NCBI GenBank assembly: GCA_023954745.1
Contig: JAGSHC010000130.1
Coordinates: 1 to 18,267, forward strand
From: Deltaproteobacteria bacterium
GTDB taxonomy: Bacteria; Myxococcota_A; UBA796; UBA9615
DNA length: 18,267 nt
Direction of reading: 5' to 3'
Of the stretch, positions 35 through 17,781 are shown one piece after another; position 1 is the stretch's first letter, and the number at the start of each line of letters is the position of its first letter. The notes beneath the pieces were generated by a model, which did no database searches, was not told the DNA's origin, and saw nothing but the letters and a program-made list of their open reading frames with translations. The position numbers and the translations under genes were made by a program.

Positions 35-976
35 ATGTCCGTGCTCGCCTCGCTGTCTGCCCTCCCCGACGACGGGATGACCGTCTCGGCCCTCCGCACC
101 TTGGACAGGGTCATCCCCGGAGAGTGGGAGAACATCACCGACTTCTCGGTGTTCGTGAAGGACTTCGCCGAGACGGAGAACCCCGAGGTCATTCGGCAGG
201 TGACCTTCCGCGCCTCCGAGCTCGAGGGGAACCCCCGCTATGCGCGGGCCCTCAAGGTATTCACCATGCTCGACACCATGGACCAGGTCGCCGCTGGAGC
301 CACCGTGGCCAGCGCCGTCGGCGGCTTGCTGGGCGGAATCAAGGGGCTCGGGTTTCTCAAGGAGGTGACACCGAAGCCCGAGACGACCCAGTGCGTCGAT
401 GCCGGGCTCAAGCTCATCGCCGAGGTCGTCGGCTTCGGCCTGCTCAACGGCATGCCCACCACCGAGAAGGGCGGGCTGACTCGCTTCGCCGGCGCTCTGG
501 AGGACTACGGCCGCTACGACCTGATGCGCATCGCCGCGTGGGTGACCATTGACGGCGTCGTCCCACTCGGGGCGGACTTCCTGCAGAAGGTGCTCGACAC
601 CTGGACGGACCCGAAGGTCACCGGAGCCCTCACCAACAACTCGGTGTTCGGCTCGCTGGCAGACCAGATCCCCGGCGGAAGCACCGACGCCAAGCGTGGA
701 TTCATCACCGACGCCATCGGCACCACCGGCGACTGGGTTGCCCGGTTCATCGACGAGAAGGGCATCACGCAGGGCGGAATGATGGACCAGCTCAACAGCG
801 TGCTCAGCATCGCGGGCGGGGCCGGCGACTACGCCGCGGCCGCGTTGGACGCCTCCACCGCCTACTACGCGCACACCGGCACTCAGACCGTCGCGCGGAC
901 TCTCGCGAGGCACGCGGTCGATGCACAGCGCCGGTCGGTCTGGCGCCGCTGGGCCCAAACCCAGACGGGCCAGTAG
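35..976 (+). CDS. hypothetical protein (no recognisable domain; Gly/Ala/Thr-rich)
   Basis: ATG at 35 preceded by GGAG (26-29). The ORF is bounded upstream by TAG at 2-4. Codon-3 GC is very high across the whole ORF. It is convergent with the kinase gene, with a 16-bp spacer. I recognise no catalytic motifs. Confidence 0.55.
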   Translation: MSVLASLSALPDDGMTVSALRTLDRVIPGEWENITDFSVFVKDFAETENPEVIRQVTFRASELEGNPRYARALKVFTMLDTMDQVAAGATVASAVGGLLGGIKGLGFLKEVTPKPETTQCVDAGLKLIAEVVGFGLLNGMPTTEKGGLTRFAGALEDYGRYDLMRIAAWVTIDGVVPLGADFLQKVLDTWTDPKVTGALTNNSVFGSLADQIPGGSTDAKRGFITDAIGTTGDWVARFIDEKGITQGGMMDQLNSVLSIAGGAGDYAAAALDASTAYYAHTGTQTVARTLARHAVDAQRRSVWRRWAQTQTGQ

Positions 977-992
977 CGGGCGTCGAAGCCGT

Positions 993-2126
993 CTAGTCGG
1001 ACTCGAGAGTGCTGCCGTCGGTCGTCAGCCGGATGGTTCCGGGCCCGGCGGGAGGACTGAACGGGTCGGCCGTCTTCGTCAGGTCGTTGGCGTGGGGGAC
1101 CGGGGCATATTTGCCGGCTTCGTCGCTCATGGCGTTGAGAACGTCGGGTGAGCTCTTCTTGCCGTCCATGACGCCCACGCGCCCCAGCAGGCGGCTGTAC
1201 TGCACGAGATCGCCGCCTCTGGGCGTGATCCGGCGCAGACCGCGCAGCTTGTGCCCCGCCTCGCGCGCGGTCTGGATGCGCAGCGAGGGGTCTCGCACCA
1301 GCAACTCGCGGCACAGCGGAGCCATCTCCGGGAATCGCGCCTCCACCTGACTGATCTCGAGGTCGAGGCTCCGGCTCCGCACCGTCTCGGCCATGTCGAG
1401 CAGGTCGGCGGTGGGGTCCACGAAGCGCTTCTCGGTGCAGAACTCGAAGAGCACCACCCCGAGGGCCCAGAGGTCAGAGACCGGCGCATCCTCCCGGCGG
1501 CCATCGAGGGCCTCGGGCGACATGTAGGCCGGGGTGCCGCGCTGCACGCCCGTATGGGTCGTGCTCAGGTCACTCAGGAGCTTGGCCATGCCGAAGTCGG
1601 CCACCTTCACAGTGCCGTCGGTGCTCAGCATGACGTTGGACGGCTTGAGGTCCCGGTGCACGATGCGCAGCTGGTTTCCGTCCGGCCGCATGCCGCTCCA
1701 GGCGTGGTCCAGGGCGTCGCAGATTCCGATGCCGAGCTCCACGAGCGCCGACCGCGGAATGCTCATGCCGTTCCGCACCAGCCCCTTGCCGAGCTGCGAG
1801 AGGTTGAGCCCCTCGACGTACTCCATGACCAGGAACGGGACGTCGTTGCGCATCTCCACCGAGTGGATGGCGACGACGTTGACGTGGCGGAGCAGGCTGG
1901 CGACCCGAGCCTCCCGCACCAGCGCCTTGAAGCCGTGGCGGGACATGGGGTCGAGCAGGAACTTGAGGGCGACGGGGCGCTCGAACCCGAGGCCGCTCTT
2001 CTCGCTCGCCAGCCAGACCTGCCCAAAGGCGCCCTGCCCAAGCCTCCGCTTCAGCGTGAAACGCTCGAGCTTCAGCCCAGCGAAGAGCTGAGTCGGGGAA
2101 TGCCTGTTCTGGGCAGAAGACGTCAC
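993..2126 (-). CDS. Serine/threonine protein kinase (Hanks-type, apparently active)
   Basis: Gly-rich loop 'LGQGAFGQV', VAIK-type Lys in 'VALKFL', catalytic loop 'HRDLKPSNVML', 'DFG' in 'VADFGMAKL', and 'GTPAYMSPE' (APE). The kinase domain is at the N-terminus, followed by a ~90 aa low-complexity tail. The apparent start is GTG at 2126, with no in-frame ATG before the Gly loop. Confidence 0.85.
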   Translation of the reverse strand: MTSSAQNRHSPTQLFAGLKLERFTLKRRLGQGAFGQVWLASEKSGLGFERPVALKFLLDPMSRHGFKALVREARVASLLRHVNVVAIHSVEMRNDVPFLVMEYVEGLNLSQLGKGLVRNGMSIPRSALVELGIGICDALDHAWSGMRPDGNQLRIVHRDLKPSNVMLSTDGTVKVADFGMAKLLSDLSTTHTGVQRGTPAYMSPEALDGRREDAPVSDLWALGVVLFEFCTEKRFVDPTADLLDMAETVRSRSLDLEISQVEARFPEMAPLCRELLVRDPSLRIQTAREAGHKLRGLRRITPRGGDLVQYSRLLGRVGVMDGKKSSPDVLNAMSDEAGKYAPVPHANDLTKTADPFSPPAGPGTIRLTTDGSTLESD

Positions 2127-2226
2127 TGGCTACTTATAGGCTGCCATCGGATGAGACAGACGGGAGTTAGGTTTTGCTCAGGATTAGACGAAAGTCTGAC
2201 TCTACACGCCCCATCCTCTCGGGCGA
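2127..2226 (-). promoter_or_regulatory. Intergenic spacer with markedly lower GC (~50%) between the giant ATPase gene stop and the kinase start; candidate kinase promoter or leader
   Basis: GC drops sharply relative to both flanks. The minus strand reads '...CAGCCTATAAGTAGCCA-GTG', with a TATAAG hexamer 7-12 nt upstream of the GTG start. I found no convincing rho-independent terminator. Confidence 0.3.
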
Positions 2227-5200
2227 CTACTCCTGGGCGAGGTCGGTCACCGCCTCTGCGACATGTCGCCGCAGCTGATCCATGAGCGACGCCCACTCCT
2301 CCTGCGACAGCGAGACGGTGCCCAACAGCTGCCCGATCTTCACGAACAGGTCCTGGATGACCGGAAGCGATCCCGCGAGCACCGCGCTGCGTGGCGAGCG
2401 CATCGTCATGTCGTCCGGGTCGATCTCCCGAAGATTCCCCGCCAACGCGTTCTGAGCCTGCAGCAACACCTCCCGCTGCACTTCAGCGACGTCCTCGTTG
2501 CTGCGGATGGCGTCCGGGGACGCCGCGAGGAACTCGAGCACGTTGAGATCCGCCAGACCGCGGGCCGTGCCCTGCACTCCCTTGCGGATGCCCTGAAGCT
2601 CCGACGCCAGCTCCCCGACGATGACGTCGAGCTTCATCGCCAGGTCGCCCTGACCGGCGACCGTGGGGGCCTTCGCTGCGGCGGCAGCTGACGCCGACGC
2701 CGCCGCTTCGGTCGCCGCGACGAGCGCCTCCTGCATCTCGCTGCTCTTCACCGCCGCCTTCGCCGTGTGCCCGATGGCGTTTGCGCCGCGCTGCACCTGC
2801 TCGGTGAGGGTGCCGAGGCGGACCCCAATCTCCTCGAGGCTCTCCTCCAGATCCCCGGTGGAGCCCGCGACCAGCGTCTCGCGAATGGCTTCGAGCTGCC
2901 GGTCCAGCCCGCTGAGGGCCCCGGTGACCCGCGCCACCGGGTCGTCTTCCCCGCCACCGGTCAGCATCGATCGGCGGAACTCCTTGCGGATGTCCTCCCA
3001 CCGCGCCCGCTGCTCGTCCGTCAGCGTGCCGAGCATCTCCCACAGCTTGAGGAGGTTGGCCTCAGCCCCCGTGGTCAGAGTCTGGGCTTCACCGATGTAG
3101 TGGTCGCGCAGGAGTGCGTCGAGCTCCGCGTCGTTCATGGCCGGCACGATCTTCTCGGACAGCTTGTTCATGTTCCGGTAGCTGCCCTGAAGCTTGAACG
3201 GCGGCTCCGTGCGGAACGCGTCCTCTTGCGCGGCGCTGGAGATGTACTGCTGGTTCACCGCGAGGACCACCTCCTGCACGCGGGCGAGCTTGCGCAGCAC
3301 GCCGGTCACCTCGTTGAGCTCGACGGTGGAGTACTCGTGGGACAGGTCCGAGGTCGGCACCTCCTCCCCCCGAGCGAGGTTGACGAGCTTGTACACGTCG
3401 CTCTGCTCGCGGGTGGCCAGCGGCTGGAGCACGGGGTTTGAGGTGAGGCTGTTCTCCACATAGGAGAGGGCGAAGGCCTCCTCTCGACCGTCGAGGATGT
3501 CGCCGAGGTTGTAGGTGTCCGCGCGGTTGGCGAGCATGTCGGGGATCTGGAAGCGGTCCCCGGACTCCGTGTAGGGATTCCCCGCCATCACCACCGCGAA
3601 CTTCTTGCCCCGCAGGTCGTAGGTGCGGGTGCGCCCCTTCCACACGCCCTCGATGCGCCGGGTGCCATCGCACAGGCTGATGAACTTCTGGAGCAGCTCG
3701 GGGTGGGTGTGCTGGATGTCATCCAGGTAGAGCATCACGTTGTTCGCCATCTCGAAGGCGAGGTTGATCTTCTCCACCTCCTGCCGCGCCGTGGCGTTGG
3801 GGGCCTCGGCGGGGTCGAGGGACGTGACGTCGTGCCCGAGGGCAGGGCCGTTCACCTTCATGAAGACGAGGCCCAGCCGCGAGGCGATGTACTCCATCAG
3901 GGTGGTCTTGCCGTACCCGGGTGGGGACACGAGCAGGAGCAGCCCCATCTGGTCCGTGCGCCGCGAGTCGCCGGCGGAGCCCATCTGCTTGGCGAGGTTG
4001 TCGCCGACGATGGGCAGATACACGTCGTTGATGAGCTTGTTGCGCACGAAGGCCGACATCACACGGGGGGTGTACTCGTCGAGGCGCAGCCTCCGTCGTT
4101 CCCGCTCCAACACCGCGTGCCGGGTCGTCCGCCATGCCGCAAAGGCCGGCACCGTCTCGCCGATCCAGCCCGAGAGCCGTCCCAGGTACTCGTCGAGCCT
4201 CAGCTCCAGGACCCCGTCCCGAATGCGCCGATGCTGCGAGAGCAGACCCGTCGCCGTCACCGACGTCAGCGCCGCCGAGCCCTCGTGCTCGAGGATGCTC
4301 TCGGTGAGGAGCCGGGCCGCCGTCTCCAGCGCGAGCCCCTCCCCTTCTGCGCCGCTTCGCGTCTGCGCGTCCTCGGCCGTGCGACCAAACACCGCGGCCG
4401 TCCAGGCGCGCACCAGCGCGAGGCGCTCCTCGAAGAGCCCGTCCAGAGCCGCGAGGTCATCCTCGAGGATGCGCCGTCCGCCGTGGTCCTCCAGGTGCCG
4501 CACGAGCGCGTCGTGCAACGTCTGGGCTTCGGACGACACACAGAAGCGGGGATGCTCGGCTTGCAGCTCTTCGACGAGATAGCTGCCCGCCATCGCCGCC
4601 TCTGACGCCGCCAGCGTCAACGAGGGCGCAGCCTCCGCCAACATCGTCCCGAGGGCGCCGGCCAGCTCGTGGGCGAGATCCGCGAGGCCGCCCGTGGCGC
4701 CCAGGGTCTCTCGCAAGCGTCCAAAGCTGCGCGCGCGGCGGTGCCAGCGCTCCTTCGCGTCCGAGTCGCTGGACCAGGCCCAGAACAGCATCGCCGCAGC
4801 CCGCGGCCGGGGCGGGAAGCGCAACAGACCCGCGGTCCCCCGCAGATGAAGCAGCTCCCTCAGCAGGGTGGCCGCGTCCGCGTCGTGCACTCCGCGCTCG
4901 TATCCTTCGTCGTAGCGCTCGGCGGCGTACTCCCGCACGAGCGTCATCAGCTCCTGCTCCTCGAGCACGGCGTCTTCGAGGTCGGACACGGTGAGGCCGC
5001 TCTGACCCGCCTCTGCGGCGAAGAGGATGGACGCCGCCAGGAACTCCGCGCGACTGACGTCTGCTCCCTCGCTGGGCAGCGCCTGCTCCCAGAACGGCTG
5101 AGCCGCGGCCACCTTGGGATCCTCGATGACCTCGTAGAAGTCGGTGCCCGTCAGGTGCAACGCCATGGCGCCATCCCGCGGCACCATCGTGAGCTCGAGG

Positions 5201-7857
5201 GGGCGCGTGTTCACCGGGAACCGGTGCTTGCCGAACTTGATGAGGTTGGCGCCGTCCCCGTCGAAGAGCTCGAGGCGGTCACGCAGCCCGCGTAGGGCGT
5301 CCTGCCGCGCGGCCTGCAGGCGGGCCAGCAGCTCCTCGCCCTTCACGGCGTCGCCCAGAGAGGTCAGCTTGTCCCCGAGGTCCCGCAGCTTGAGCACCAT
5401 GGAGTCGCTGGCGAACCAGGCGTTCAGCTCGTCCTGGTCCTTGAACGTGCGCGCCCTGCGGGCCACGCCGCTGAGGATGCGCTCCGCCGCCTTCACCAGG
5501 CTGCCGATCCGCTTCTGCCGCTCGTCCACCAGCACCTGCTTGCGCGCGCCGAGGGCGAGCTCGATCTCCTCTCGCTTGCTCGCGAGCTGAGGCAGGAACT
5601 CGTCGAACTCGCCAAACCTCGCCTCGAGCTCCTCGAGCTGGAGCATCAGGCGGGAGAGCTGGTCGTCGCAGGCCTCGGGAGAGTCCGCGAGCGCCACCGC
5701 CGACGACACGGACTGGCCCAGAAGGCTCCACTGCGCTGCGAAGTCCGCCCGCGCCTCGTGCCCCGCGATCTCCTTGCGCTTGTTGGTGAGCACCGCGCGC
5801 ACCCGGTTCACCTGGCCGAACACCTCGCCGAGCCGCTCGAGGATGGCGGCGCGCGCGGTGGCGTCGTCGATCTCCAGACCGGAGACCACCTCGGTCATGA
5901 GCTCGAGGCCCGAAATGAGCTCCCCCTGCTTCTCGACGAGGGGCTTCATGTCCACGAGGCGCTCGACGGCTTCGATCTGGCCGTGCAGCTCCTCGATGCG
6001 CTTCGTGAGGGGAGTCAGGGCGTCGTCGCCGAGGAGAAACTCCACGGTGGCGCGAGAGATGCGCTCGAACTCGCCGGCGACCTCCTCTTCCATCCCGTCG
6101 ATGGCGGCGCGGTCGATGTACCGCACGTCCCGCATCGTGATGAGGTGCCCGCGCTGGGTCCTCAGGCCCGTGAGGGCCGCCATGAACTGCTCCGCCTCCA
6201 CCCAGGAGTCGGGGTGCAGGTCGTCCTTGAGGGTGCGCTGCTGCTCGCGCGCCTCGGTGAGGGCCGATTGCGCCTCGCGCTGGAGGATCTGCACCTTCTC
6301 GAACTCGTCGATGATGAGCTCGGCGACGTCGCGCACCTTCGCCAGGGGCGAGGCGAGGGCGATCTCGTCTTCGGAGAACCAGAAGTACGTGTCCAGCGCG
6401 CGCTGGCAGGCCGTCACCAGGGCCTCGTAGACCCCGCGACTCGGCTCCTGCTCCACCACCATGCGGCCCACGGTGAGGCAGTCCGACAGTCCGCGGACCA
6501 GCTCCTTGTTGCCGATGCGGGCCAACGCGCTGCCGTCGGTGGGGACCTGCGCGGCGTGCTCGGCGGAGACGAAGGGCGTGTCCCACACCTGCATGGGGTG
6601 GACGCGTGAGGGCTCGTCGGACGCGGCCCGGAACACCACCAGGCGGCCGTCGTCGAAGAGCGACCAGCCGTGGCAGCGAATGGGATTGCGCACCTCGCGC
6701 CGGATGAGGTTGTAGGGGAAGAGCACGTAGAGCCCGTCCCGGCGGCGGTTGAAGACGAACAGCACGTCCTCGCCGTTGGGCGACGCCACCTTGCGCAGGA
6801 AGCGCAGGTCCTCGTCGACGTCCGGGAAGACCTTGTACTCCCCCGTCTGGAGCACGTAGCCGCCGGGGAAGATGACGCCGTGGTCTTCGGGCAGCGCCAC
6901 GCAGCTGTCGCCGACGCTGTCGATGCGCAGGACGTGCTGGGTGCGGCGGTTGAAGACGAGGTGGCGGTAGCGGTCCTCCATGTAGGGGCGGATGCGCAGC
7001 AGCACCAGCGAGCCACGAATCGTGTAGAGGATGTGGGCGTCGTCGAGCGACTGGTTGGGGTCGTCCACGTCCTCGCGGTACACGCCGAGGCCGTCTTCGG
7101 TGTTGTCCTCGACCTTGATGGTGAGGTCCCCGCCGACCGTCTCCACGAACACGACGTCCTCCACGCTCACGTGGGGATGGCGCCCCAGGATGTGGTCGTC
7201 GCGCGAGGTCTCAGTCCACTCGAAGTCGTGGGTCGGCGGAGGCACGAAGGCCCGCTCGCCGCGGTCGTCGATGTACTCGATGTGCTCCGACGCATCGAGG
7301 CCCCACTGGAAGACCTTGACCGAGTCCTCGGACTCGCCGGTCTGGAAGACGGCCAGCAGCTTGCGGCCGTCGCTCCGAAGCGCCACCAGGCGCGTGTCGG
7401 AGTAGTACTGGTAGAGCTGGGTGAAGGCGCGCTGGAACTCCGCCCCGTGCAGGAAGGCCGCCTCCTCCGGGGACGCCGGGGTGAACTCCAGGAGCCCGTC
7501 CTCGCGTACCGAGAAGTGCTGGACGGAGAACACGTCGTCGATGGTGGTCGTCTTGCGGAGCCCGACGAACACGTTGTACCCGAAGAGCAAGAGCCCGCCG
7601 ACCTGCACGATGTCCACGGGAACGCAGTTGTTCTCCGTGCGCACGCGCTCGGTGCCGAGCACTCCAGCCTCAGTGCCTCCGAAGAGGGCCTGACGCTGCT
7701 CGTTGAGTGCCCGGGCGGCGTCCGCGAGCCCCCGCCCCTGGCCCGAGAGCCGCTGGCGGATGACTTCGTAGCTGCCTCCCGGTCCACCCTCAGCGGGAGA
7801 GCCCCCGGCGCTCTCTGTCCCGCCGGGGGTCTCCGTGGTGGCCGAAGCCTCAGGCAT
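2227..7857 (-). CDS. Giant (1876 aa) AAA_5/MoxR-like P-loop ATPase-containing protein; disordered N-terminus, probable beta-rich N-terminal region, long alpha-helical/coiled-coil regions, ATPase module near residues ~1310-1470
   Basis: Walker A 'VSPPGYGKTTLMEY' lies at ~3901-3940 on the minus strand. Walker B 'VMLYLDDIQH' lies at ~3711-3740. A sensor-like segment 'KFAVVMAGNPYTESGDRFQIPDMLANRA' is typical of AAA_5 (MoxR/McrB/dynein-related) ATPases. The ORF is one continuous 5.6-kb reading frame with high codon-3 GC. Its ATG at 7857 overlaps the flotillin stop as ATGCCTGA. Confidence 0.8.
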   Translation of the reverse strand: MPEASATTETPGGTESAGGSPAEGGPGGSYEVIRQRLSGQGRGLADAARALNEQRQALFGGTEAGVLGTERVRTENNCVPVDIVQVGGLLLFGYNVFVGLRKTTTIDDVFSVQHFSVREDGLLEFTPASPEEAAFLHGAEFQRAFTQLYQYYSDTRLVALRSDGRKLLAVFQTGESEDSVKVFQWGLDASEHIEYIDDRGERAFVPPPTHDFEWTETSRDDHILGRHPHVSVEDVVFVETVGGDLTIKVEDNTEDGLGVYREDVDDPNQSLDDAHILYTIRGSLVLLRIRPYMEDRYRHLVFNRRTQHVLRIDSVGDSCVALPEDHGVIFPGGYVLQTGEYKVFPDVDEDLRFLRKVASPNGEDVLFVFNRRRDGLYVLFPYNLIRREVRNPIRCHGWSLFDDGRLVVFRAASDEPSRVHPMQVWDTPFVSAEHAAQVPTDGSALARIGNKELVRGLSDCLTVGRMVVEQEPSRGVYEALVTACQRALDTYFWFSEDEIALASPLAKVRDVAELIIDEFEKVQILQREAQSALTEAREQQRTLKDDLHPDSWVEAEQFMAALTGLRTQRGHLITMRDVRYIDRAAIDGMEEEVAGEFERISRATVEFLLGDDALTPLTKRIEELHGQIEAVERLVDMKPLVEKQGELISGLELMTEVVSGLEIDDATARAAILERLGEVFGQVNRVRAVLTNKRKEIAGHEARADFAAQWSLLGQSVSSAVALADSPEACDDQLSRLMLQLEELEARFGEFDEFLPQLASKREEIELALGARKQVLVDERQKRIGSLVKAAERILSGVARRARTFKDQDELNAWFASDSMVLKLRDLGDKLTSLGDAVKGEELLARLQAARQDALRGLRDRLELFDGDGANLIKFGKHRFPVNTRPLELTMVPRDGAMALHLTGTDFYEVIEDPKVAAAQPFWEQALPSEGADVSRAEFLAASILFAAEAGQSGLTVSDLEDAVLEEQELMTLVREYAAERYDEGYERGVHDADAATLLRELLHLRGTAGLLRFPPRPRAAAMLFWAWSSDSDAKERWHRRARSFGRLRETLGATGGLADLAHELAGALGTMLAEAAPSLTLAASEAAMAGSYLVEELQAEHPRFCVSSEAQTLHDALVRHLEDHGGRRILEDDLAALDGLFEERLALVRAWTAAVFGRTAEDAQTRSGAEGEGLALETAARLLTESILEHEGSAALTSVTATGLLSQHRRIRDGVLELRLDEYLGRLSGWIGETVPAFAAWRTTRHAVLERERRRLRLDEYTPRVMSAFVRNKLINDVYLPIVGDNLAKQMGSAGDSRRTDQMGLLLLVSPPGYGKTTLMEYIASRLGLVFMKVNGPALGHDVTSLDPAEAPNATARQEVEKINLAFEMANNVMLYLDDIQHTHPELLQKFISLCDGTRRIEGVWKGRTRTYDLRGKKFAVVMAGNPYTESGDRFQIPDMLANRADTYNLGDILDGREEAFALSYVENSLTSNPVLQPLATREQSDVYKLVNLARGEEVPTSDLSHEYSTVELNEVTGVLRKLARVQEVVLAVNQQYISSAAQEDAFRTEPPFKLQGSYRNMNKLSEKIVPAMNDAELDALLRDHYIGEAQTLTTGAEANLLKLWEMLGTLTDEQRARWEDIRKEFRRSMLTGGGEDDPVARVTGALSGLDRQLEAIRETLVAGSTGDLEESLEEIGVRLGTLTEQVQRGANAIGHTAKAAVKSSEMQEALVAATEAAASASAAAAAKAPTVAGQGDLAMKLDVIVGELASELQGIRKGVQGTARGLADLNVLEFLAASPDAIRSNEDVAEVQREVLLQAQNALAGNLREIDPDDMTMRSPRSAVLAGSLPVIQDLFVKIGQLLGTVSLSQEEWASLMDQLRRHVAEAVTDLAQE

Positions 7858-9778
7858 CGCTGTTCGTCTCGTTCGAGCCGGTCGCCTTGTCGATCACCTT
7901 GCCGGCAATGGCCTTGAGGCCGCCGGGGACGTCGAAGTCGCCGTCGAGCATGTCGCCGAACATGTTCTGGAGCACCTCGGACTCGCCGGCCACGGCGTCG
8001 ATGCTCTGCCCGAGGCTCACCGCCTTGATGAACCGCTCGAAGAACTCTCCGTCGCCGCCCACGATCTTGATGTCCGCGGACTCCATCGCCGTGCCGAGCA
8101 CTGCGGCCTGGGCCTCGGCGATCTCCTTGCGCACGTCAAGCGCCTGCTGCTGGAGCTGCTTCATCGTGTCCAGCTTCAGGCGGAACTCCTCGTGCTGCCA
8201 ACCCTGACCCTCGAGGGCCTTCATGGCCTCGGCCTTCTCGTGGATGCCGGCTGCCTCGGCAGCGGCCTTTTCCTTGGCGACCAGGGCCTGGGACAGACCG
8301 AGCTTCTCTTCGCCTTCCGCCTGCGCCGACATCTTCTCGATGGTGACGCGGGCCTCGGCGAGGCCTTCCTTCTCCAGGGCGATGGCGTTGGCCTCCTTGA
8401 CCCGCGCGATGGCGAGACCGGAAGCGGCTTCCTGCGCCTGGGTACCCTCGGCCAGGCGAATCTTCGCCTTCGCCTCGATGTCCGCAGCCTTGAGCTCGGC
8501 CTCGGCGAGCACGACGCGCTCCTTGGCCTGGAACTCCGCCGCCCTCTCCTGGGCCTCGGCAGCCTTGATGCTCATGATGAGCGACTCCTGGGCCGACGCC
8601 TCGGCGTCGATGACCTTCACGTCCGCGTGGCGCTTCGCCTCGGAGTTCACCCGCAGGTCCTTGATGCGCTCCTCCTCCTCGGCCACCGACTTGTCGACGG
8701 CGATGCGGGTGCGGACGACCTCGGCGATCTCCTTCTTCTCCTTCTCGATCGCCTTCTCCTTGTTGATCCGCCCGAGCTCGACCTCGCGCTCGCGGTTGAT
8801 CTCTTCGAGCTGGCGGTCCTTCTCGACCTGCTCGCTCTTGATGGCGACCACGCGCTCGCGGTCCTTGTCGGCCACCTGCACCTGCCGGGTCTTGTTCAGC
8901 TCGGCGACCTCGATGGACTCGTCCGCCTTGATGCGGGCGGCCTCGGCGCGGTTGCGCTCCTCGGAGCGGACCTTCTCGGTCTCGGCGGCTTCGCGAGCGG
9001 CCACCGTGGCGACCTCGCGGTTCTTCTTGGCGAGGGCGTCGGCGTGGCGGCGCTCCTGCTCGAAGACCTTCTCGTCCGCGTCCACCTTGAGGCGGGTGAG
9101 CTCCATGCGCTCCGACTGGCGCCGCTCCTCCGTCTTGATGTTCTGGTCCGTGGTGATCTCCGTGATCTTGCGGATGCCCTGGGCGTCGAGGATGTTCGAC
9201 GGGTCCAGGGAGCTCAGGGGCGTCTGCTCGAGGTAATCGATGGCCGCGTCGTCGAGCACGTACCCGTTCAGGTCGGTGCCGATGACTTCGATGATGCGGT
9301 CCTTGAACTCGTTCCGCATGGTGAAGAGCTGCTCGAACTCGAGCGACTTACCGACGGTCTTGAGCGCCTCGGAGAACTTCGCGACGAAGAGCTCCTCGAG
9401 CACGTCCTGACGGCTCGCACGGTCGCAGCCGAGGGCCTGGGCCACCTTGAGCACGTCGTCCTCGGTCTTGTTGACCCGGACGAAGAAGGTGACCTTGATG
9501 TCGGCGCGGATGTTGTCCTGGCAGATGAGCCCTTCAGCTCCGCGCCGGTCGAGCTCGACCGTCTTGACCGAGATGTCCATGACCTCAGCGCGGTAGATGA
9601 TGGGGAGGACGATGCCGCCCGTGAAGGAGACGACCGGCTCACCCTGCACCTTGTTGATGATGAGGGCTCGACCCTGGTCGACCTTGCGGTAGAAGCGCGT
9701 CACCAGGACCAGGAAGCCCACCACGATCAGCGCGAGGACCAGGATGGCGCCGGCGACGGCGAGTGCGGATTGGGTCAT
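7850..9778 (-). CDS. Flotillin-like SPFH/band-7 protein (YqiK/FloT family)
   Basis: N-terminal TM helix 'LAVAGAILVLALIVVGFLVLV'. SPFH core 'FYRKVDQGRALIINKVQGEPVVSFTGGIVLPIIYRAEVMDISVKTVEL...ICQDNIRADIKVTFFVRV' matches flotillin/YqiK conservation. It is followed by a >300 aa Glu/Ala-rich coiled coil and a C-terminal flotillin-type tail. ATG at 9778 has AAGGGG ~12 nt upstream. Confidence 0.9.
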   Translation of the reverse strand: MTQSALAVAGAILVLALIVVGFLVLVTRFYRKVDQGRALIINKVQGEPVVSFTGGIVLPIIYRAEVMDISVKTVELDRRGAEGLICQDNIRADIKVTFFVRVNKTEDDVLKVAQALGCDRASRQDVLEELFVAKFSEALKTVGKSLEFEQLFTMRNEFKDRIIEVIGTDLNGYVLDDAAIDYLEQTPLSSLDPSNILDAQGIRKITEITTDQNIKTEERRQSERMELTRLKVDADEKVFEQERRHADALAKKNREVATVAAREAAETEKVRSEERNRAEAARIKADESIEVAELNKTRQVQVADKDRERVVAIKSEQVEKDRQLEEINREREVELGRINKEKAIEKEKKEIAEVVRTRIAVDKSVAEEEERIKDLRVNSEAKRHADVKVIDAEASAQESLIMSIKAAEAQERAAEFQAKERVVLAEAELKAADIEAKAKIRLAEGTQAQEAASGLAIARVKEANAIALEKEGLAEARVTIEKMSAQAEGEEKLGLSQALVAKEKAAAEAAGIHEKAEAMKALEGQGWQHEEFRLKLDTMKQLQQQALDVRKEIAEAQAAVLGTAMESADIKIVGGDGEFFERFIKAVSLGQSIDAVAGESEVLQNMFGDMLDGDFDVPGGLKAIAGKVIDKATGSNETNSDA

Positions 9779-9811
9779 TTTCTTCTGTACCCCTTGTTTC
9801 GTTGTGTGTGT

Positions 9812-9833
9812 CGGGCTTCTACGCGGAAGCCCG
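9812..9833 (-). other. Perfect 8-bp stem / 6-nt loop hairpin (CGGGCTTC-tacgcg-GAAGCCCG) in the 68-bp spacer between the YqiJ-like gene and the flotillin gene; adjacent (GT)4-5 microrepeat at 9803-9811
   Basis: Read directly: 9812-9819 is the exact reverse complement of 9826-9833. On the transcribed (minus) strand it is not followed by a U-tract, so it is more likely an intercistronic processing or stability element, or an attenuator, than an intrinsic terminator. Confidence 0.4.
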
Positions 9834-9846
9834 GGTTTCTATTGCC

Positions 9847-10764
9847 TTAGTTGCTCTGCTTTCGGCGCGCTGCGACGCGGGCCCTCACCCGGTCGATGGC
9901 CGCGAGGCGTGCTGCCTGCACGTCCCCCTCGGCTGCCTTGACGTCGAGCTTCTCGACGACAAACGCCTCCCCTTCCCGGTCCCACTGCACAAGCAGCGCC
10001 CGGTCCCCCTTGCTCAGCCCCTGCTCGGAGCGGTCGCGCACCTGCACGATGTTGTGATGGCCCGCCTCGGTGACCTCCGCCTGGCCGAAGGTCTTGGTGA
10101 CCTTGCCGGTGGTGATGGTCACGACGACGCCGATGAACGAGCGGTTGCCCCGTCCTCGTTCCGTGTGGAACAGCCCTCCCAGGGGGCGCACCGCGACCGA
10201 GGCTCCAAGAGTGCCCGCCGTGAAGGCGCTCAGCGCGATGGCGGCGCCGCTCAGAAGCTCCGGCACCGGCAGCAAGGGCGCCACGTGCACCGTCATCAGG
10301 AAGCTGGCGAGCCAGGAGAACAGGACGATGAACGACAAGCTCACCGTCAGGGGGACCGTGGTGAGCTTGAGGGTCGAGAGCATCACTGCGAGCAGACCCG
10401 GGCCGTGCCCGTCTACGTCCGCATCGGCGTCGAGGCCGTCCAACGCTGCATCTCCGGCCCCCTCGAACGCGCCGTCGATGCCGTCCAGCGCCCCGTCGAG
10501 GGCATCCAGCCCGGGGAATCCGTTCCCGTCGAGGGCGTCCAAACCGTCCAGACCGTCTAGACCGTCTAGCGCTCCGTCCAGGGCGCCATCCGCCGCGCCG
10601 TCGAGGCCTCCCTCGAGCGCTCCATCGGCGCCGTCGAGGGCGTCGAGGGCGTCCAGGTCCACCGCGCCGATCACGACGAAGACCCAATAGATCAGGGACA
10701 ACAGCAGGGGCACGGTGAAGATCACCGTCGGCAGGCTCAGAACCGTCGAGACAAAGTCGCCCAT
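9847..10764 (-). CDS. YqiJ/NfeD-like inner-membrane protein with C-terminal OB-fold (flotillin partner), carrying an ~85-aa (A/G)LDG acidic tandem repeat insert
   Basis: N-terminal TM 'LPTVIFTVPLLLSLIYWVFVVIGAV', central TM cluster 'LLAVMLSTLKLTTVPLTVSLSFIVLFSWLASFLMTV...AAIALSAFTAGTLGASV'. C-terminal NfeD-type OB fold 'GVVVTITTGKVTKTFGQAEVTEAGHHNIVQVRDRSEQGLSKGDRALLVQWDREGEAFVV'. ATG at 10764 has GAGGGAG 5 nt upstream. The gene sits immediately upstream of flotillin, as in yqiJ-yqiK / nfeD-flo operons. Confidence 0.75.
   Translation of the reverse strand: MGDFVSTVLSLPTVIFTVPLLLSLIYWVFVVIGAVDLDALDALDGADGALEGGLDGAADGALDGALDGLDGLDGLDALDGNGFPGLDALDGALDGIDGAFEGAGDAALDGLDADADVDGHGPGLLAVMLSTLKLTTVPLTVSLSFIVLFSWLASFLMTVHVAPLLPVPELLSGAAIALSAFTAGTLGASVAVRPLGGLFHTERGRGNRSFIGVVVTITTGKVTKTFGQAEVTEAGHHNIVQVRDRSEQGLSKGDRALLVQWDREGEAFVVEKLDVKAAEGDVQAARLAAIDRVRARVAARRKQSN
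10405..10665 (-). repeat. Imperfect in-frame tandem repeat (9-18 nt units, e.g. gccgtcgagggcgtccag / gaccgtctag) encoding ~25 copies of (A/G)-L-D-G within the YqiJ-like protein
   Basis: The protein segment is 'DLDALDALDGADGALEGGLDGAADGALDGALDGLDGLDGLDALDGNGFPGLDALDGALDGIDGAFEGAGDAALDGLDADADVDG'. The DNA shows the iterated units directly, e.g. 10541-10570 'ccgtccagaccgtctagaccgtctagcgct'. Confidence 0.8.
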
Positions 10765-10986
10765 CCCACTCCCTCGGGCGCGTCGCTTGCGCGGCGCCGC
10801 CCGCTCCTCCGGGGACCGGAGTATCGCCCATCAGCACCGTGCTTGGTAGCTCGCAGGCCCTCGTTCTTACGGGCGGCCGACCAGTTCATTGCTACTGACC
10901 GAACGGTCGAGTTAGGCGTTTTTATCGATCTAGTTCTGGACGTTTTGGTCTCTTTGGGCAATAACTTCCCTCGGAGGCAGAACGAA
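10765..10986. promoter_or_regulatory. Divergent intergenic region between the flotillin operon (-) and the SDR/PYP operon (+); contains an AT-richer stretch (~10910-10970) and the RBS GGAGG (10972-10976) for the ATG at 10987
   Basis: Codon-3 GC collapses in all frames. 'gcgtttttatcgatctagttctggacgttttggtctctttgggcaataactt' is the lowest-GC segment in the window. Both flanking genes start outward from this region. Confidence 0.5.
10897..10908. promoter_or_regulatory. 12-bp inverted repeat GACCG-AA-CGGTC in the divergent promoter region (candidate operator)
   Basis: Read directly: half-sites GACCG and CGGTC are exact reverse complements separated by AA. The site lies ~80 bp upstream of the SDR gene ATG. 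Confidence 0.25.
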
Positions 10987-12459
10987 ATGCGTGTGTTGGT
11001 CACAGGAGCTACTGGATTCGTCGGACGGGCTTTGGCCCTTCGTCTTCTCCGTGGCGGCCACGAGATCGTCGCCTGGACCCGCAACGAAGAGCGTGCGCGG
11101 GACCTCTTGGGACCTTCGGTCCTCCTGGCGAGCGACGCCTCCCCGGGACGCCTCGAAGAGGAGGTTGCCCTCGCCGATGCGGTGGTGAACCTCGCCGGAG
11201 AGAACCTCTTCTCCGGTCGCTGGACCGAAGCCACAAAGCAACGACTGGTGAACTCCCGGGTCGACCTGACCCGGCGGATCTCCACGGCCCTGGCCGCGTC
11301 CCCCCCGCGAGACCGGGTGCTGATCAGCTCGAGCGCGGTGGGTTTCTACGGAGCCCGAGGCGACAGCGAGCTCGACGAGACGTCTGCCCGCGGGGATGGC
11401 TTCCTCGCCGACCTCTGCGTCGCCTGGGAGCAGGCGGCCACCGCGGCTCGCACCGACTCCACCCGTGTCGCAATCCTCCGCACCGGCCTGGTCCTCGGCT
11501 CCGAAGGTGGAGCCCTCGCGCGCATGCTTCCGTTGTTCAGGGCCGGCCTCGGCGGTCGCCTCGGGCACGGTCGTCAGTGGATGTCCTGGATTCACCTGCA
11601 CGACCTCGTCGGTCTCATCATGCGGGCGCTCGATGACACCTCCTTCGAGGGGGTCTTCAACGCGACGGCTCCCGAGCCGGCGACCAACCGGGAGTTCACC
11701 CGCGCCCTCGCCGATGCTTTGGGCCGACCGGCGCTCCTTCCTGCGCCGGGCGTCGCGATGCGACTGGCTCTGGGCGAGGCGGCGGGGGTCCTCTTGACCG
11801 GGCAGCGCGTTCTGCCGCGACGGGGTGCGGCGGCGGGCGTGCGCTTCGCGTACCCGACCCTCTCCGACGCCTTTGCGCAGGTCCTCGATCAAGGCCGAAC
11901 CCCCACCATTCGGCGCGCCGACCGCGGCACGAAGCCCCTCGCGAACCGCCCAGCCGCGCAGTTCGTGCTCGAGCAGGAGACCCGGATCCAGGCCCCCCTG
12001 GTCGAGGTGTTCCCGTTCTTCAGCCGCGCCGCGAACCTCGCGCTGCTGACCCCCACCTGGACGGACTTCCGCATCCTCGAGCACCCCCAGGGCGAGACCC
12101 TGCAGGGCTCGAACATCGTCTACCGCCTCACCCTGTTCGGGGTGCCGATTCGGTGGAAGACCCTCATCGCGCAGTGGGAGCCCGGAGAGCGCTTCGTCGA
12201 CACCCAGCTCCGAGGGCCGTACCGCCTCTGGTGGCACGAGCATCACTTCGCCTCCACGCCCGACGGCGGTGTCCACATGGTGGACCGGGTGTCCTACACG
12301 GTCCCCCTCGGCCCTCTGGGGCGCGTGGCGAACTCCATCCTCGTCGCACCTCTGCTGAAGCGGATCTTCGCCTGGCGAGCCGAGGCAATCACTCTTCGCT
12401 TCAACCCCGACGCCCCCCGCCATGGTCGCTCGGACACCCAGAACCGGAGCGCCGCATGA
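10987..12459 (+). CDS. TIGR01777/YfcH-family NAD-binding epimerase (SDR-like, DUF1731-type) fused to a C-terminal SRPBCC (polyketide-cyclase/START-like) ligand-binding domain
   Basis: The Rossmann motif 'MRVLVTGATGFVGRALA' sits at the extreme N-terminus. 'LRTGLVLGSEGGALARMLPLFRAGLGGRLGHGRQWMSWIHLHDLVGLI' is typical of YfcH-like proteins. The C-terminal ~150 aa 'FVLEQETRIQAPLVEVFPFFSRAANLALLTPTW...RFVDTQLRGPYRLWWHEHHF' is SRPBCC-like. The in-frame upstream TTG at 10843 is rejected because codon-3 GC there is low and the Rossmann loop would not be N-terminal. Confidence 0.8.
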   Translation: MRVLVTGATGFVGRALALRLLRGGHEIVAWTRNEERARDLLGPSVLLASDASPGRLEEEVALADAVVNLAGENLFSGRWTEATKQRLVNSRVDLTRRISTALAASPPRDRVLISSSAVGFYGARGDSELDETSARGDGFLADLCVAWEQAATAARTDSTRVAILRTGLVLGSEGGALARMLPLFRAGLGGRLGHGRQWMSWIHLHDLVGLIMRALDDTSFEGVFNATAPEPATNREFTRALADALGRPALLPAPGVAMRLALGEAAGVLLTGQRVLPRRGAAAGVRFAYPTLSDAFAQVLDQGRTPTIRRADRGTKPLANRPAAQFVLEQETRIQAPLVEVFPFFSRAANLALLTPTWTDFRILEHPQGETLQGSNIVYRLTLFGVPIRWKTLIAQWEPGERFVDTQLRGPYRLWWHEHHFASTPDGGVHMVDRVSYTVPLGPLGRVANSILVAPLLKRIFAWRAEAITLRFNPDAPRHGRSDTQNRSAA

Positions 12460-13415
12460 CCCGTCCAGTCATCGCAGTGAGCGGCTGCATCGCCGGCGAG
12501 TCCGTGCGCTTCGACGGCGGCTTCGGCAAGGACGCGTTCCTGCTGAACCAGGTGGCCCCCTTCGCAGACCTCGTCACGTTCTGTCCCGAGGTGGAGGCAG
12601 GCATGGGGACTCCACGCAACACCATCCGCCTCGTGCGTGCAAGCAGGTCCGAAGAGACTCGAGTCATCCAGAACAAGACCGGTGACGACTGGACCGAGCG
12701 TCTGCGCGCCACGTCGAGAGAGATCGCCGCACGCCTCGCGGCCGCCAACCTCTCCGGAGTCGTGGTCCGTCGAAACTCCCCCACGTGCGGCCTGGAGCGA
12801 GTGCGGATCTACGACTGGAACGCAGTGCCCAGCAAGGAAGGCGTGGGCGTCTTCGTCCAGGCCCTGCGGGAGCGCTTCCCACTGCTGGCCATCGAGGAAG
12901 ACGGACGCCTTCGAGACGCTCGCATTCGCGAGGCGTTCTTCGAGCGGGTCTTCGCCCACGCCCGCCTGCGGGAGCTGCTCGACGCGGGCACCTGGCGCGC
13001 CAGAGACGTCGTCGCCTTTCACAGCCGCGAGAAGCTGCTCCTCCTCTCCCACAGCCCGAAGGTCTACCGGGAGATGGGCCGCCTCGTCGCCCGGGTGGGC
13101 TCCATGGAGCGCGCCCCATTCGCGGCGGCCTACGCCGAGCTCTTCTTGTCCGCCATGGCTGAGCCCGCGACCCCGGGCCGCCAGGTGAACACGCTCCAGC
13201 ACGCGGCGGGGTTCCTCAAGCGGGACAGCCTCCCGGCTGAGAAGGCGCGCCTCGCCAACATCATCTCCGATTACGCCGCGGGCTTGTTGCCCCTTGCTGT
13301 GCCCGTGGCCGTACTGCGCGCCGGGATTGCTCGTACCCAGCCCTCTTGGCTGAGCGCCCAATCCTGGCTCGCCCCCCACCCCAAGCAACTGAGACTGAGG
13401 ACATGGGTTCCATGA
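12456..13415 (+). CDS. DUF523 (TudS-like Fe-S thiouracil desulfidase fold) - DUF1722 (YbgA-like) fusion protein
   Basis: ATG 12456-12458 overlaps the upstream TGA 12457-12459 (ATGA). The N-terminus 'MTRPVIAVSGCIAGESVRFDGG' and 'VVRRNSPTCGLERVRIYD' match the DUF523 conserved Cys motifs. The C-terminal half, rich in 'FFERVFAHARLRELL...LLLLSHSPKVYREMGRLVA', is YbgA/DUF1722-like. Confidence 0.8.
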   Translation: MTRPVIAVSGCIAGESVRFDGGFGKDAFLLNQVAPFADLVTFCPEVEAGMGTPRNTIRLVRASRSEETRVIQNKTGDDWTERLRATSREIAARLAAANLSGVVVRRNSPTCGLERVRIYDWNAVPSKEGVGVFVQALRERFPLLAIEEDGRLRDARIREAFFERVFAHARLRELLDAGTWRARDVVAFHSREKLLLLSHSPKVYREMGRLVARVGSMERAPFAAAYAELFLSAMAEPATPGRQVNTLQHAAGFLKRDSLPAEKARLANIISDYAAGLLPLAVPVAVLRAGIARTQPSWLSAQSWLAPHPKQLRLRTWVP

Positions 13416-14044
13416 CTGAAAACTCCTTGATGACCACCCGCTCTGTCGCCGACCTCCTCGGCGTTGGCGTGAGCTCCGTGAAGCGCTGGACCGACGAGGG
13501 AAAGCTCACCTGTGTGCGGACCGCTGGAGGACATCGTCGCTTCGAGACGGTGGAAGTAGACCGCTTCCGGCGCGAGCAGTTTGCCCAGGACCGCGAGCGC
13601 AAGCCCTACCCGGCGGCGATGCTCGACATTGATGGCTATCGGCTGCCGGCCCCACTGCACGAGCTGACCGCCGCCGAGATCGACGCGCTGCCCTTCGGCG
13701 TGATCCAGCTGGACGATGACGGCATGGTCATCTTCTACAACAAGGCCGAGAGCAAGCTGTCGGGGCGGAGCGTCGAGGACTCGGTGGGACGTTCGTTCTT
13801 CACCGAGGTGGCGCCCTGCACCAACAACAGTCTGCTGCGTGGACGGTTCGAGGACGGCATCGCCATGAAGAACCTCGACTGCACCATCGACTACACGTTC
13901 ACCTATCGCATGCGTCCGACCCCCGTGCGCATGAGGCTGCGACGCGATGGTCCGTCCAAGACCAACTGGCTCATCGTGACTCCGCGAAAGGTCGGGGACC
14001 GAAAGAGCCCCGCAGGATCGCCCGGTCGGTTCGGACGGTCTTGA
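13412..14044 (+). CDS. HTH_17 (excisionase/MerR-type DNA-binding) - photoactive yellow protein (PYP) domain fusion, paralogue 1
   Basis: ATG 13412-13414 overlaps the upstream TGA 13413-13415 (ATGA), with GAGG 11 nt upstream. The HTH is '[34 protein letters not shown]'. The PYP core '[27 protein letters not shown]...[11 protein letters not shown]...DYTFTYRM' aligns with Halorhodospira PYP, with Tyr42, Glu46, Arg52, chromophore Cys69 ('VAPCT'), Phe96 and Tyr98 conserved. Alternative in-frame starts exist at 13403 and 13430. Confidence 0.8.
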
Positions 14045-14622
14045 CCCGCGCGGGGCGGACACCAACACTGCCTCTCGTGAACGACGACCTCATCACCACC
14101 CGCGCCGCGGCAGCCCTCTTGGGCGTCGGTACGACATCCATCAAACGGTGGGCTGACGACGGCACTCTTGTCTGTGTCCGCACTGCCGGGGGCCATCGGA
14201 GGTTCCGTCGGGGGGAGGTGCTTCGGCTCCTCAACTCCTCGGAGGAGGGACCGGGCTCCGAGAGCAAGGCCGACATCCACGAGCGCCTCCCCTCCATGAC
14301 GACGGGGCAGCTCGACACCCTCGACTTCGGAGTCGTCCAATTGGGCGACGATGGCCTGGTCCTGCAGTACAACGCCTTCGAGGAAGAGTTCGCTCACCTC
14401 CGACGTCAAGATGTGGCCGGCCTGAACTTCTTCACTCACGTGGCCCCCTGCACGAACAACAAGCTCCTCTACGGCCGATTCCGAGAAGGAGTCGCACGCG
14501 GGCTCTTCGACTTCACCATGGACTACACCTTCACCTACAAGATGCAGCCCCGGGTGGTGTCGCTCCACGTGTTCCGCCACTCGGGGACGAACACCAACTG
14601 GCTGCTCGTGAGGCCGCGCTAG
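14041..14622 (+). CDS. HTH_17 - photoactive yellow protein (PYP) domain fusion, paralogue 2
   Basis: The HTH '[33 protein letters not shown]' is ~65% identical to paralogue 1. The PYP core '[22 protein letters not shown]...[11 protein letters not shown]...DYTFTYKM' has Tyr42, Glu46 and Cys69 conserved, but Thr50 and Arg52 are replaced (A, L). The start is uncertain: TTG at 14041 overlaps the upstream stop (TTGA), and GTG at 14074 would give an N-terminus colinear with paralogue 1. Confidence 0.7.
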
Positions 14623-14624
14623 AG

Positions 14625-14843
14625 ATGGACTCCTCCTCCAACAACGGGGACATGGAAGCTCAGCTCGTCGCCCTGTACGAGGAGAAGGAGCTCCTGGAGC
14701 AGGAGTTGGGGATCTCCAGCGCCGACCTCCTCATCGCGATGGTGCGCAGCATGGAAGAACAGCTGATCGCGCTCTACACGGAGAAGGAGACCTCGTGGAG
14801 GTCCGCGACTTCGCCCGCCAGCTCCTCTTCGGAGAGTCGCTAA
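14625..14843 (+). CDS. Small acidic ORF (72 aa) with an internal direct repeat (MEAQLVALYEEKELLEQ / MEEQLIALYTEKE); possibly a separate micro-protein or the displaced N-terminus of the downstream gene
   Basis: ATG at 14625 lies 3 nt after the PYP-2 stop, with GAGG 11 nt upstream. Codon-3 GC is very high up to ~14793 in this frame. The coding signal then transfers to the -1 frame at ~14795, where the downstream ORF begins. Confidence 0.3.
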   Translation: MDSSSNNGDMEAQLVALYEEKELLEQELGISSADLLIAMVRSMEEQLIALYTEKETSWRSATSPASSSSESR

Positions 14844-16803: not shown

Positions 16804-17781
16804 TCATGGCGCCGGTCCTCGCTCACCCGGAGCTGTGCCGGATGACTCGATGTCGAACAGACGCAGGATCTGATTGCGCCAGCTTGCAGGCGCGGCGATG
16901 ACGATACGATCCGTCTGCGCCACGGCGCGGCCATCGGGCAGAGACCCCACCACCACCCTCTCCTCTTCGCCGGTCTCACTGATCCACTCCACGGTGAGCC
17001 CTCCAGCCGCGAGGGCCTCTTCGGCCATCGGAGACAACGGCCGGGGCAGCACTTCCCCCCCTGGGACCGCAGTCAGGGACCAGCCCACCGCCTCCGCCAT
17101 GTCGCGGTCGGCGACGTCCAAGGACCTGCCGCTGCCGACGCGGTCCATCCACCATTTGGCGGGGCCAGCGCCAGGTTCGCGCACGAGAGTGCGGCGGTGG
17201 GTTCCGTCGTCTACGTGGAGGACAGCGGGGTCACCGACACAGAGAAGAGGCTCGGTGGGGTCGAGCCAATACTCCACGCGCGCGAGTTCGAGGGGGTCCT
17301 GTTCGAGGAGCAGCTCGCTCCAGAAGGCCGTCCGCTGCCCTTTGACCCGGACCGCTCGACGCCCGCGCACGAGGCGGTCTCCAAGAGCGACATGCAGAAG
17401 CCGGATGTCTCGGTCCCGATCGAATCCGACAGCCACCCTGTGGGGCCCAAGGCGCATGGCCTCGTCCCCCCGGACCGTCTCCACCTCCGCAGCGGCCTCC
17501 ACGAGCCTCAGCCCCTGGACCGCGTCGAAGAGCGCCCCCACTCTCCCCGCCGTGACGCGTCCCGCGGCACCCCGGTAGATCTCCCACCCCGCGTCGGAGC
17601 CCTCGCGACGCAGCCCCAAGGTGTGATCCCCCTGGGTGATCTCGATGAGTTGCACGCTCGCAGGCTCGAGGCGGAGGGTGTAGGGCGGATCTGCCGGGAC
17701 TGCGCCCCGCCACTGATCCAGCACCAGAAACGTCAGGATCGCTACAAGGACGACCACCGCAGCACGCACGAAGCGCCTCAC
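16804..17781 (-). CDS. Hypothetical membrane-anchored protein (N-terminal signal-anchor helix, extracytoplasmic domain)
   Basis: N-terminus 'MRRFVRAAVVVLVAILTFLVLDQW' looks like a signal-anchor. Codon-3 GC is high throughout. No catalytic motifs are recognised. It is convergent with the upstream + strand operon, with a 92-bp spacer. Confidence 0.55.
   Translation of the reverse strand: MRRFVRAAVVVLVAILTFLVLDQWRGAVPADPPYTLRLEPASVQLIEITQGDHTLGLRREGSDAGWEIYRGAAGRVTAGRVGALFDAVQGLRLVEAAAEVETVRGDEAMRLGPHRVAVGFDRDRDIRLLHVALGDRLVRGRRAVRVKGQRTAFWSELLLEQDPLELARVEYWLDPTEPLLCVGDPAVLHVDDGTHRRTLVREPGAGPAKWWMDRVGSGRSLDVADRDMAEAVGWSLTAVPGGEVLPRPLSPMAEEALAAGGLTVEWISETGEEERVVVGSLPDGRAVAQTDRIVIAAPASWRNQILRLFDIESSGTAPGERGPAP

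Follow-up and report, generated by a model that had tools for sequence, protein, structure and literature searches.

The DNA analysed here, called the window throughout, comprises the 18,267 nucleotides (nt) of contig JAGSHC010000130.1 from a deltaproteobacterium (assembly GCA_023954745.1), with a base composition of 68% GC. On its minus strand three consecutive genes encode, in this order, a YqiJ/NfeD-type membrane protein of 305 amino acids (aa; 9847..10764), a flotillin, i.e. a YqiK/FloT-type SPFH protein, of 642 aa (7850..9778), and a giant AAA+ protein of 1876 aa and 205 kDa (2227..7857), whose gene alone extends over 5.6 kb. The same identities and coordinates had been given in a first reading of the sequence, hereafter the original prediction, and all three genes were recovered as exact open reading frames (ORFs) of the minus strand. 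The three genes very probably represent one conserved module, the "abbreviated" form of an operon that has been described by comparative genomics (PMC11237479).

Gene layout and the two membrane proteins

At ATGCCTGA (7850..7857, minus strand) the giant gene starts within the last codons and the stop codon of the flotillin gene, as the original prediction had pointed out. This 8-nt overlap is also kept in a relative with 81% identity (locus L085). No other in-frame start of the giant exists ahead of its conserved GGSYEVIR block and its residues 1-26 are predicted to be disordered, hence the overlap is regarded as genuine. Across the loci compared the spacing between flotillin and giant gene ranges from -77 to +462 nt with -4 as the commonest value, and a 4-nt overlap occurs in many Actinobacteria. 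The flotillin and giant genes are thus predicted to be translationally coupled. The YqiJ-like and flotillin genes are separated by a spacer of 68 nt (9779-9846), which contains a GC-rich 10-bp hairpin (9811..9834, minus strand) with a predicted RNA folding energy of -21.8 kcal/mol (z -3.1). We rejected the hairpin as a terminator of the operon because, read along the operon, it has no U-tract; a terminator-like appearance is confined to the opposite strand. It could serve as a processing or stability element or as a partial attenuator. Similar spacer hairpins were seen in several Myxococcota loci and none in Actinobacteria, where the genes abut, a comparison made without a GC-matched control. 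Finally, no sigma-70-like promoter was detected across positions 800-11200, which is a weak indicator at the GC content of the host. A single transcription unit comprising all three genes is plausible.

The 642-aa protein is clearly a flotillin as judged from sequence comparisons, despite the fact that it does not match Pfam Band_7 even at E<=10 and matches the NCBIfam FloT model weakly (E 0.0017). BLASTP aligned it over 436 aa with E. coli YqiK (E 2e-35, 29% identity), and this alignment runs to residue 461 and spans the glutamate/alanine (E/A)-rich region. Moreover, a profile of 14 family members was aligned to YqiK by hhalign with a probability of 99.9% (E 3.6e-32), and Band_7 is matched by 4 of the 14 orthologues (best E 5.4e-8). 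The protein shows a single, N-terminal hydrophobic segment (residues 1-33) that is predicted to provide the membrane anchor (residues ~5-28), followed by the SPFH domain (residues ~30-200) and the long E/A-rich coiled-coil region. Sequence and profile searches of the PDB with the flotillin family returned no match. The subfamily found here stands apart from canonical flotillins by its much stronger conservation across phyla (more than 50% identity from one phylum to another) and by a score below the Pfam Band_7 threshold. As a side observation, a motif of about 45 aa (..KNLT.SALL.KL..), which ends the flotillin in most orthologues, is absent from its C-terminus in the window (7850-7990) and in close relatives. 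Should the ATPase dock at this motif, the lineage represented by the window would be without such a site.

For the YqiJ-like protein, hydrophobicity prediction gave three hydrophobic segments. The first transmembrane segment (TM1; residues ~5-30) is predicted to be followed by a variable, acidic linker of (L/A)DG repeats (residues ~34-120; window 10400-10670), by TM2-3 (residues 131-192) and by a C-terminal OB-like domain (residues ~200-270). The linker DNA consists of short tandem repeats with periods of 9, 12, 21 and 36 nt, and the linker length differs widely among orthologues, being absent in Actinobacteria and longest in locus L002. The 305-aa protein had no direct Pfam match even at E<=10, the Pfam NfeD domain was found neither in it nor in its scanned orthologues, and the profile search of the PDB gave chance matches only. 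We assign it to the YqiJ type because of the three hydrophobic segments, the match of its family profile to E. coli YqiJ (hhalign 93.4%, E 2.4e-7), and the detection of YqiJ_N (PF21001) in 2 of 14 orthologues (best E 8.3e-5). The profile alignment covers TM2-3 and the putative C-terminal OB region, including the block GK(V/L)T..FGQ...GD. The same gene order, a YqiJ-type gene directly followed by a flotillin gene, is known from yqiJ-yqiK of E. coli and yuaF-floT of B. subtilis. However, these canonical NfeD2 plus SPFH2 operons end at the flotillin, and in E. coli yqiJ-yqiK is followed by the unrelated sib/ibs loci, whereas the window adds the 5.6-kb coupled ATPase gene. The contrast to two-gene operons drawn in the original prediction is therefore upheld.

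Domain architecture of the giant ATPase

The giant is well conserved between residue 28 and approximately residue 1650, most strongly at the AAA+ core, and conservation falls off in the last 225 residues. Its N-terminal part (residues 44-492; 6382..7728, minus strand) matches the Pfam family DUF3686 with an E value of 8.8e-194, a domain that had been missed in the original prediction. At 50% identity the family falls into 743 clusters, and its full-length members measure 1,590-2,036 aa. In the predicted structure an N-terminal helix is followed by an all-beta domain with some 28 strands and by closing helices, and on the basis of this model we are confident that the domain is beta-propeller-like and regard it as a probable binding module. 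The next part (residues 493-1290; 3988..6381, minus strand) was delimited by composition and conservation as a conserved, probably helical region rich in alanine, glutamate and leucine. It contains DUF7902 (PF25472; residues 612-696, Pfam E 4.7e-25), gives weak matches to spectrin repeats and is termed coiled-coil in PMC11237479. The alanine-rich C-terminal tail, which together with the stop codon occupies 2227..2907 (residues 1651-1876, minus strand), is weakly conserved (0.04-0.28), probably helical and weakly similar to designed coiled coils.

The catalytic part is a single AAA+ module of the MoxR/dynein, AAA_5 type with a helical lid (residues 1291-1650; 2908..3987, minus strand). Pfam AAA/AAA_5 was matched at residues 1307-1430, and the AAA_5 score of 28.6 bits exceeds the cutoff of 22, which bears out the ATPase class named in the original prediction. 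The module contains Walker A (GYGKTT, residues 1314-1319), Walker B (LYLDD, residues 1376-1380; window 3718-3732), the sensor-1 residue N1427, R1445 as presumed arginine finger, and a pre-sensor-1 beta-hairpin (residues ~1401-1414) inserted between the Walker B and sensor-1 strands. The residues K1317/T1318, D1379-D1380, N1427 and R1445 are shared without exception by the 12 diverse members compared, and the protein looks like an active ATPase. In every aligned family member the usual DE of Walker B is replaced by DD. Comparison of the predicted fold identified the MoxR proteins CbbQ and NorQ as well as dynein and midasin as closest structures, and sequence-level searches of the PDB yielded matches at the P-loop level only.

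Despite this similarity the giant differs from each of these groups. The MoxR proteins CbbQ, NorQ and RavA are stand-alone proteins of about 270 aa, whereas the giant carries one AAA+ domain within a chain of 1876 aa, and dynein and midasin concatenate six domains where the giant has one. MoxR ATPases are normally paired with a VWA partner. The giant has no VWA/MIDAS partner, its Walker B reads DD instead of DE, and its sequence similarity is limited to the motifs. It may act as a MoxR-like remodeller and is not part of a canonical MoxR system. The giant contains no hydrophobic segment and is therefore considered soluble; with one such segment in the flotillin and three in the YqiJ-like protein, the soluble parts of all three proteins are expected on the cytoplasmic side.

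Linkage across phyla and gene neighbourhood

Species-representative genomes were scanned and yielded at least 567 loci with a relative of the giant, of which 80 were fetched and their six-frame ORFs searched with the three proteins of the window. Linkage was counted in the 73 loci whose upstream sequence extends over 3.3 kb or more. In 71 of these the flotillin gene ends between -100 and +600 nt from the start of the giant gene on the same strand. One further locus is also adjacent (L046), its giant being split by an apparent frameshift (10903-10991) that reflects a pseudogene or an assembly error, while in locus L013 an insertion of about 6 kb (3590-9953) separates flotillin and giant. A YqiJ-like gene upstream of the flotillin was identified by script in 67 of the 73 loci, and in about 70 when three loci are added in which over-extended ORF calls or a gap of 2.9 kb had masked it. 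The association of giant homologues with SPFH and NfeD-type genes, whose absence would have refuted the original prediction by its own terms, was thus found in 71-72 (flotillin directly upstream) and about 70 (YqiJ-like) of the 73 loci, and the linkage of flotillin and giant is essentially obligatory. The linked loci belong to Myxococcota, Actinomycetota, Gammaproteobacteria and Planctomycetota, and records of the plasmid collection add Hymenobacter (Bacteroidota), Deinococcus (Deinococcota), Vibrio, Photobacterium, Halomonas and Proteus. The 425-kb plasmid pQBR103 carries the module as well (L081, NC_009444.1 85464-104419). Between phyla the giant retains more than 50% identity over 1,650 aa. 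No match to a 3.9-kb query from the Limnobaculum giant gene was found in complete E. coli genomes.

The strict linkage also bears on the database name of the giant. Pfam describes DUF3686 as "ATPase involved in DNA repair" and NCBI uses "DNA repair ATPase", and if these names were correct, the neighbouring flotillin would be incidental. Besides the names, weak P-loop matches to RuvB might be quoted for such a role. However, these comprise about 45 residues around the P-loop and reach 21.7 bits against a cutoff of 282. The ATPase is a contiguous AAA+ domain of the MoxR/dynein type near the C-terminus and not an ABC-type head as in SMC, Rad50 or SbcC; no SMC_N or ABC match, no DNA-binding or nuclease domain and no nuclease neighbour was found; and membrane genes are adjacent in 71-72 of the 73 loci. 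A function in DNA repair is therefore extremely unlikely. The name probably derives from a coiled-coil similarity to SbcC-type proteins.

The original prediction had considered the system possibly undescribed. This did not hold, because the operon had already been reported by Popp, Ravi, Aravind and co-workers, whose comparative-genomics study (PMC11237479, mSystems 2024; bioRxiv 2020.09.24.301986) describes a band-7/flotillin, YqiJ and beta-propeller/coiled-coil/AAA+ operon, relates it to membrane dynamics, and mentions more widely spread "abbreviated operons" without PspA. All three components, their architectures and the gene order match the window, and its supplement gives an example from Dokdonia with the same gene order. 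Compared with the full form, the CesT/Tir-PspA pair and the PLD gene are missing from the window, which corresponds to the "abbreviated" form. The giant of the window can be assigned to the family of that study because its homologues sit in full PspA-containing operons of Gammaproteobacteria and Hymenobacter. The available text provides neither a mechanism nor an experiment, nor the names of the Pfam families. Our literature search found no experimental study on the module, and queries for DUF3686, PF12458, "DNA repair ATPase" together with flotillin, and flotillin together with MoxR returned nothing relevant. The SPFH survey of 2009 does not mention the ATPase (PMC2636767).

Clustering of flanking ORFs and Pfam scans of the 80 loci revealed the flotillin and YqiJ-like genes as the only invariant neighbours of the giant. 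Extended versions occur in gammaproteobacterial loci (L056-L074), where DUF2170, the CesT/Tir-like YjfI family, and PspA are encoded directly upstream in 13 loci and a PLD-family hydrolase downstream in 8. A rhomboid gene is present in 8 gammaproteobacterial loci, downstream in 7 of them; this recurrent protease is not mentioned in the available text of PMC11237479. In Hymenobacter the order is Tir - PspA - DUF1449 - flotillin - ATPase, DUF1449 denoting the YqiJ/NfeD2 family, and on pQBR103 the module is fused to yjfK/L/M/C-like genes (DUF2491, DUF350, DUF1190, glutathionylspermidine synthase). Neither PspA nor DUF2170 was detected among the scanned ORFs of the window.

These neighbourhoods are also relevant for a possible function in anti-phage defence or abortive infection, in which the ATPase would sense the phage, and the membrane parts, or the PLD and rhomboid proteins of some versions, would kill or permeabilise the cell. 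The scattered distribution over phyla, the presence on large plasmids such as pQBR103, the PLD-family hydrolase and rhomboid protease of some versions and a weak, P-loop-only similarity to IetA could be taken as hints in this direction. In PADLOC, however, the giant matches IetA and mad8 at the P-loop only (E 7e-4 to 1e-2, about 28 residues), and flotillin and YqiJ-like protein have no match. Moreover, no copy of the module was found among the 50,697 records of the phage collection, and the flanks consist of ordinary metabolic and regulatory genes instead of defence islands, the recurrent partners being the envelope-stress genes PspA and YjfI. All three proteins are unusually conserved, exceeding 50% identity between phyla, which is atypical of defence genes. 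Collectively, these data make a defence function very unlikely.

The genes that flank the module in the window are ordinary metabolic and regulatory genes and not conserved partners of it. A Ser/Thr protein kinase is encoded 100 nt downstream of the giant (993-2126, minus strand) and matches the PADLOC kinase models PD-T4-6 and mad6 as a generic kinase domain. It was considered and rejected as a fourth component, because in the relative with 81% identity another gene occupies this place, and position and strand of kinases vary in other loci; it probably lies outside the module. Divergently from the module, the plus strand encodes a 538-aa SDR/epimerase plus DUF1731 protein (10843-12459), in which about 190 C-terminal residues have no Pfam match; this gene is absent at the same position in L085. 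It is followed by a co-directional cluster (12453-16711, plus strand) that starts with a DUF523/DUF1722 protein resembling 2-thiouracil desulfurase and further encodes two MerR/HTH_17 plus PAS regulators (13346-14044 and 14041-14622) and a DUF455 protein of 638 aa with a C-terminal extension of about 380 aa that has no Pfam match. The cluster is found in synteny beside the module in L085 and partly in L087. Finally, two putative ORFs have no Pfam or NCBIfam match (35-976, plus strand, 313 aa; 16804-17781, minus strand, 325 aa).

Possible ATP-driven remodelling of a flotillin scaffold

How might the three proteins work together? SPFH proteins oligomerise into rings or cages, and NfeD partners bind flotillin via their OB domain. 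We propose that the flotillin, anchored by its N-terminal helix, would form such an assembly at the inner membrane, on its cytoplasmic face, and that the YqiJ-type protein with its three TM segments would reside inside the enclosed membrane patch and bind the flotillin by its OB domain. The soluble giant would form a ring via its MoxR-like AAA+ domain, its long helical arm would span to the scaffold, and its beta-propeller would dock on it. ATP would then be spent on the assembly, disassembly or remodelling of the flotillin scaffold and, where they are co-encoded, also of PspA/ESCRT-III polymers, for the purpose of membrane maintenance or stress repair. This model is based on the gene linkage and overlap, the predicted topology, the invariant ATPase motifs, the MoxR/dynein fold and the beta-propeller-like domain. 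It is furthermore in line with the connection of the operon to membrane dynamics in PMC11237479 and with the finding that B. subtilis PspA is brought to the membrane by the SPFH protein YdjI (PMC8581546). A role in membrane stress is suggested by the DUF2170-PspA, rhomboid and PLD neighbours in Gammaproteobacteria and the Tir-PspA genes in Hymenobacter.

Several points weigh against this proposal. PspA is absent within 10 kb in all Myxococcota and Actinomycetota loci as well as from the 18-kb window, therefore a PspA-directed role is not general unless PspA is encoded elsewhere. No VWA gene was found in the window or among the conserved neighbours of the 80 loci. The DD of Walker B may point to slow or switch-like hydrolysis and not to a processive motor. 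Finally, no experiment was found for any member, and the physical interaction, the oligomeric state and the substrate are presumed ones. Taking both sides together, we hold ATP-driven remodelling of the flotillin scaffold as mechanism for possible, with chances that come close to even. For the combined statement, i.e. the module identity together with ATP-driven remodelling of flotillin and PspA in membrane stress, we see somewhat better than even chances. The energy-dependent microdomain machine suggested in the original prediction thus appears as a reasonable inference, while its further suggestions, a defence effector and gating by the SPFH ring, found no specific support, the PADLOC and phage searches being negative.

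Other systems in which an SPFH scaffold is coupled, genetically or physically, to an AAA+ machine or an NfeD-type partner are HflK/C-FtsH and stomatin/NfeD (QmcA-YbbJ), respectively (PMC2636767). By analogy to the former, the flotillin cage might, instead of being its substrate, corral or gate the ATPase, which would chaperone or extract other membrane clients in the microdomain. Interactions with the AAA+ protease FtsH have been reported for SPFH1, SPFH3 and prohibitins (PMC2636767). MoxR-type ATPases typically serve other complexes as chaperones of maturation or insertion, CbbQ and NorQ are the top fold matches of the giant, and a beta-propeller can act as a generic platform for client binding. 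However, FtsH is a membrane-anchored protease, which faces the HflK/C cage from the opposite side of the membrane, whereas the soluble giant has neither a protease domain nor a membrane anchor and would share the cytoplasmic side with the flotillin. There is also no conserved client gene nearby, the flotillin and YqiJ-like genes being the only constant companions, and by our own estimate a hexamer built from 205-kDa subunits may prove too big to be enclosed. We consider such a client-directed function unlikely.

The proposed remodelling of the flotillin scaffold itself resembles, by analogy only, the ESCRT-III/Vps4 and PspA/PspF systems, in which a membrane polymer scaffold is combined with a dedicated AAA+ remodeller, PspA being the bacterial homologue of ESCRT-III. 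Different from Vps4, the giant belongs to another AAA+ clade and lacks an MIT domain, and its invariant partner is flotillin and not PspA. In its most specific form, the DUF3686 giant would be the dedicated assembly and disassembly motor of flotillin cages, and of PspA polymers where these are encoded, built as an AAA+ ring of the MoxR/dynein type whose arm is dynein-like and whose beta-propeller serves as grip, and thereby a bacterial counterpart of Vps4. This bolder version is tentative and, in our judgement, rather doubtful. If true, it would fill a gap stated in a review of 2025, according to which a Vps4-like ATPase is apparently absent from bacteria (PMC7619361).

The copy in the window is a typical, ordinary member of a described, uncharacterised system and adds nothing further by itself. 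What has been gained is a count of the linkage, a place for the ATPase in the MoxR/dynein clade and the finding that the name "DNA repair ATPase" is without support. Corallococcus, Myxococcus, Streptomyces, Proteus mirabilis and P. fluorescens SBW25 with pQBR103 are tractable carriers for further work. The module bears on the questions of how flotillin assemblies are built up, turned over and coupled to membrane repair, and how PspA/ESCRT-III is regulated in bacteria. Since a very large, conserved ATPase is tied to flotillin in at least six phyla, the module offers a concrete candidate, open to testing, for the part of these processes that consumes energy.

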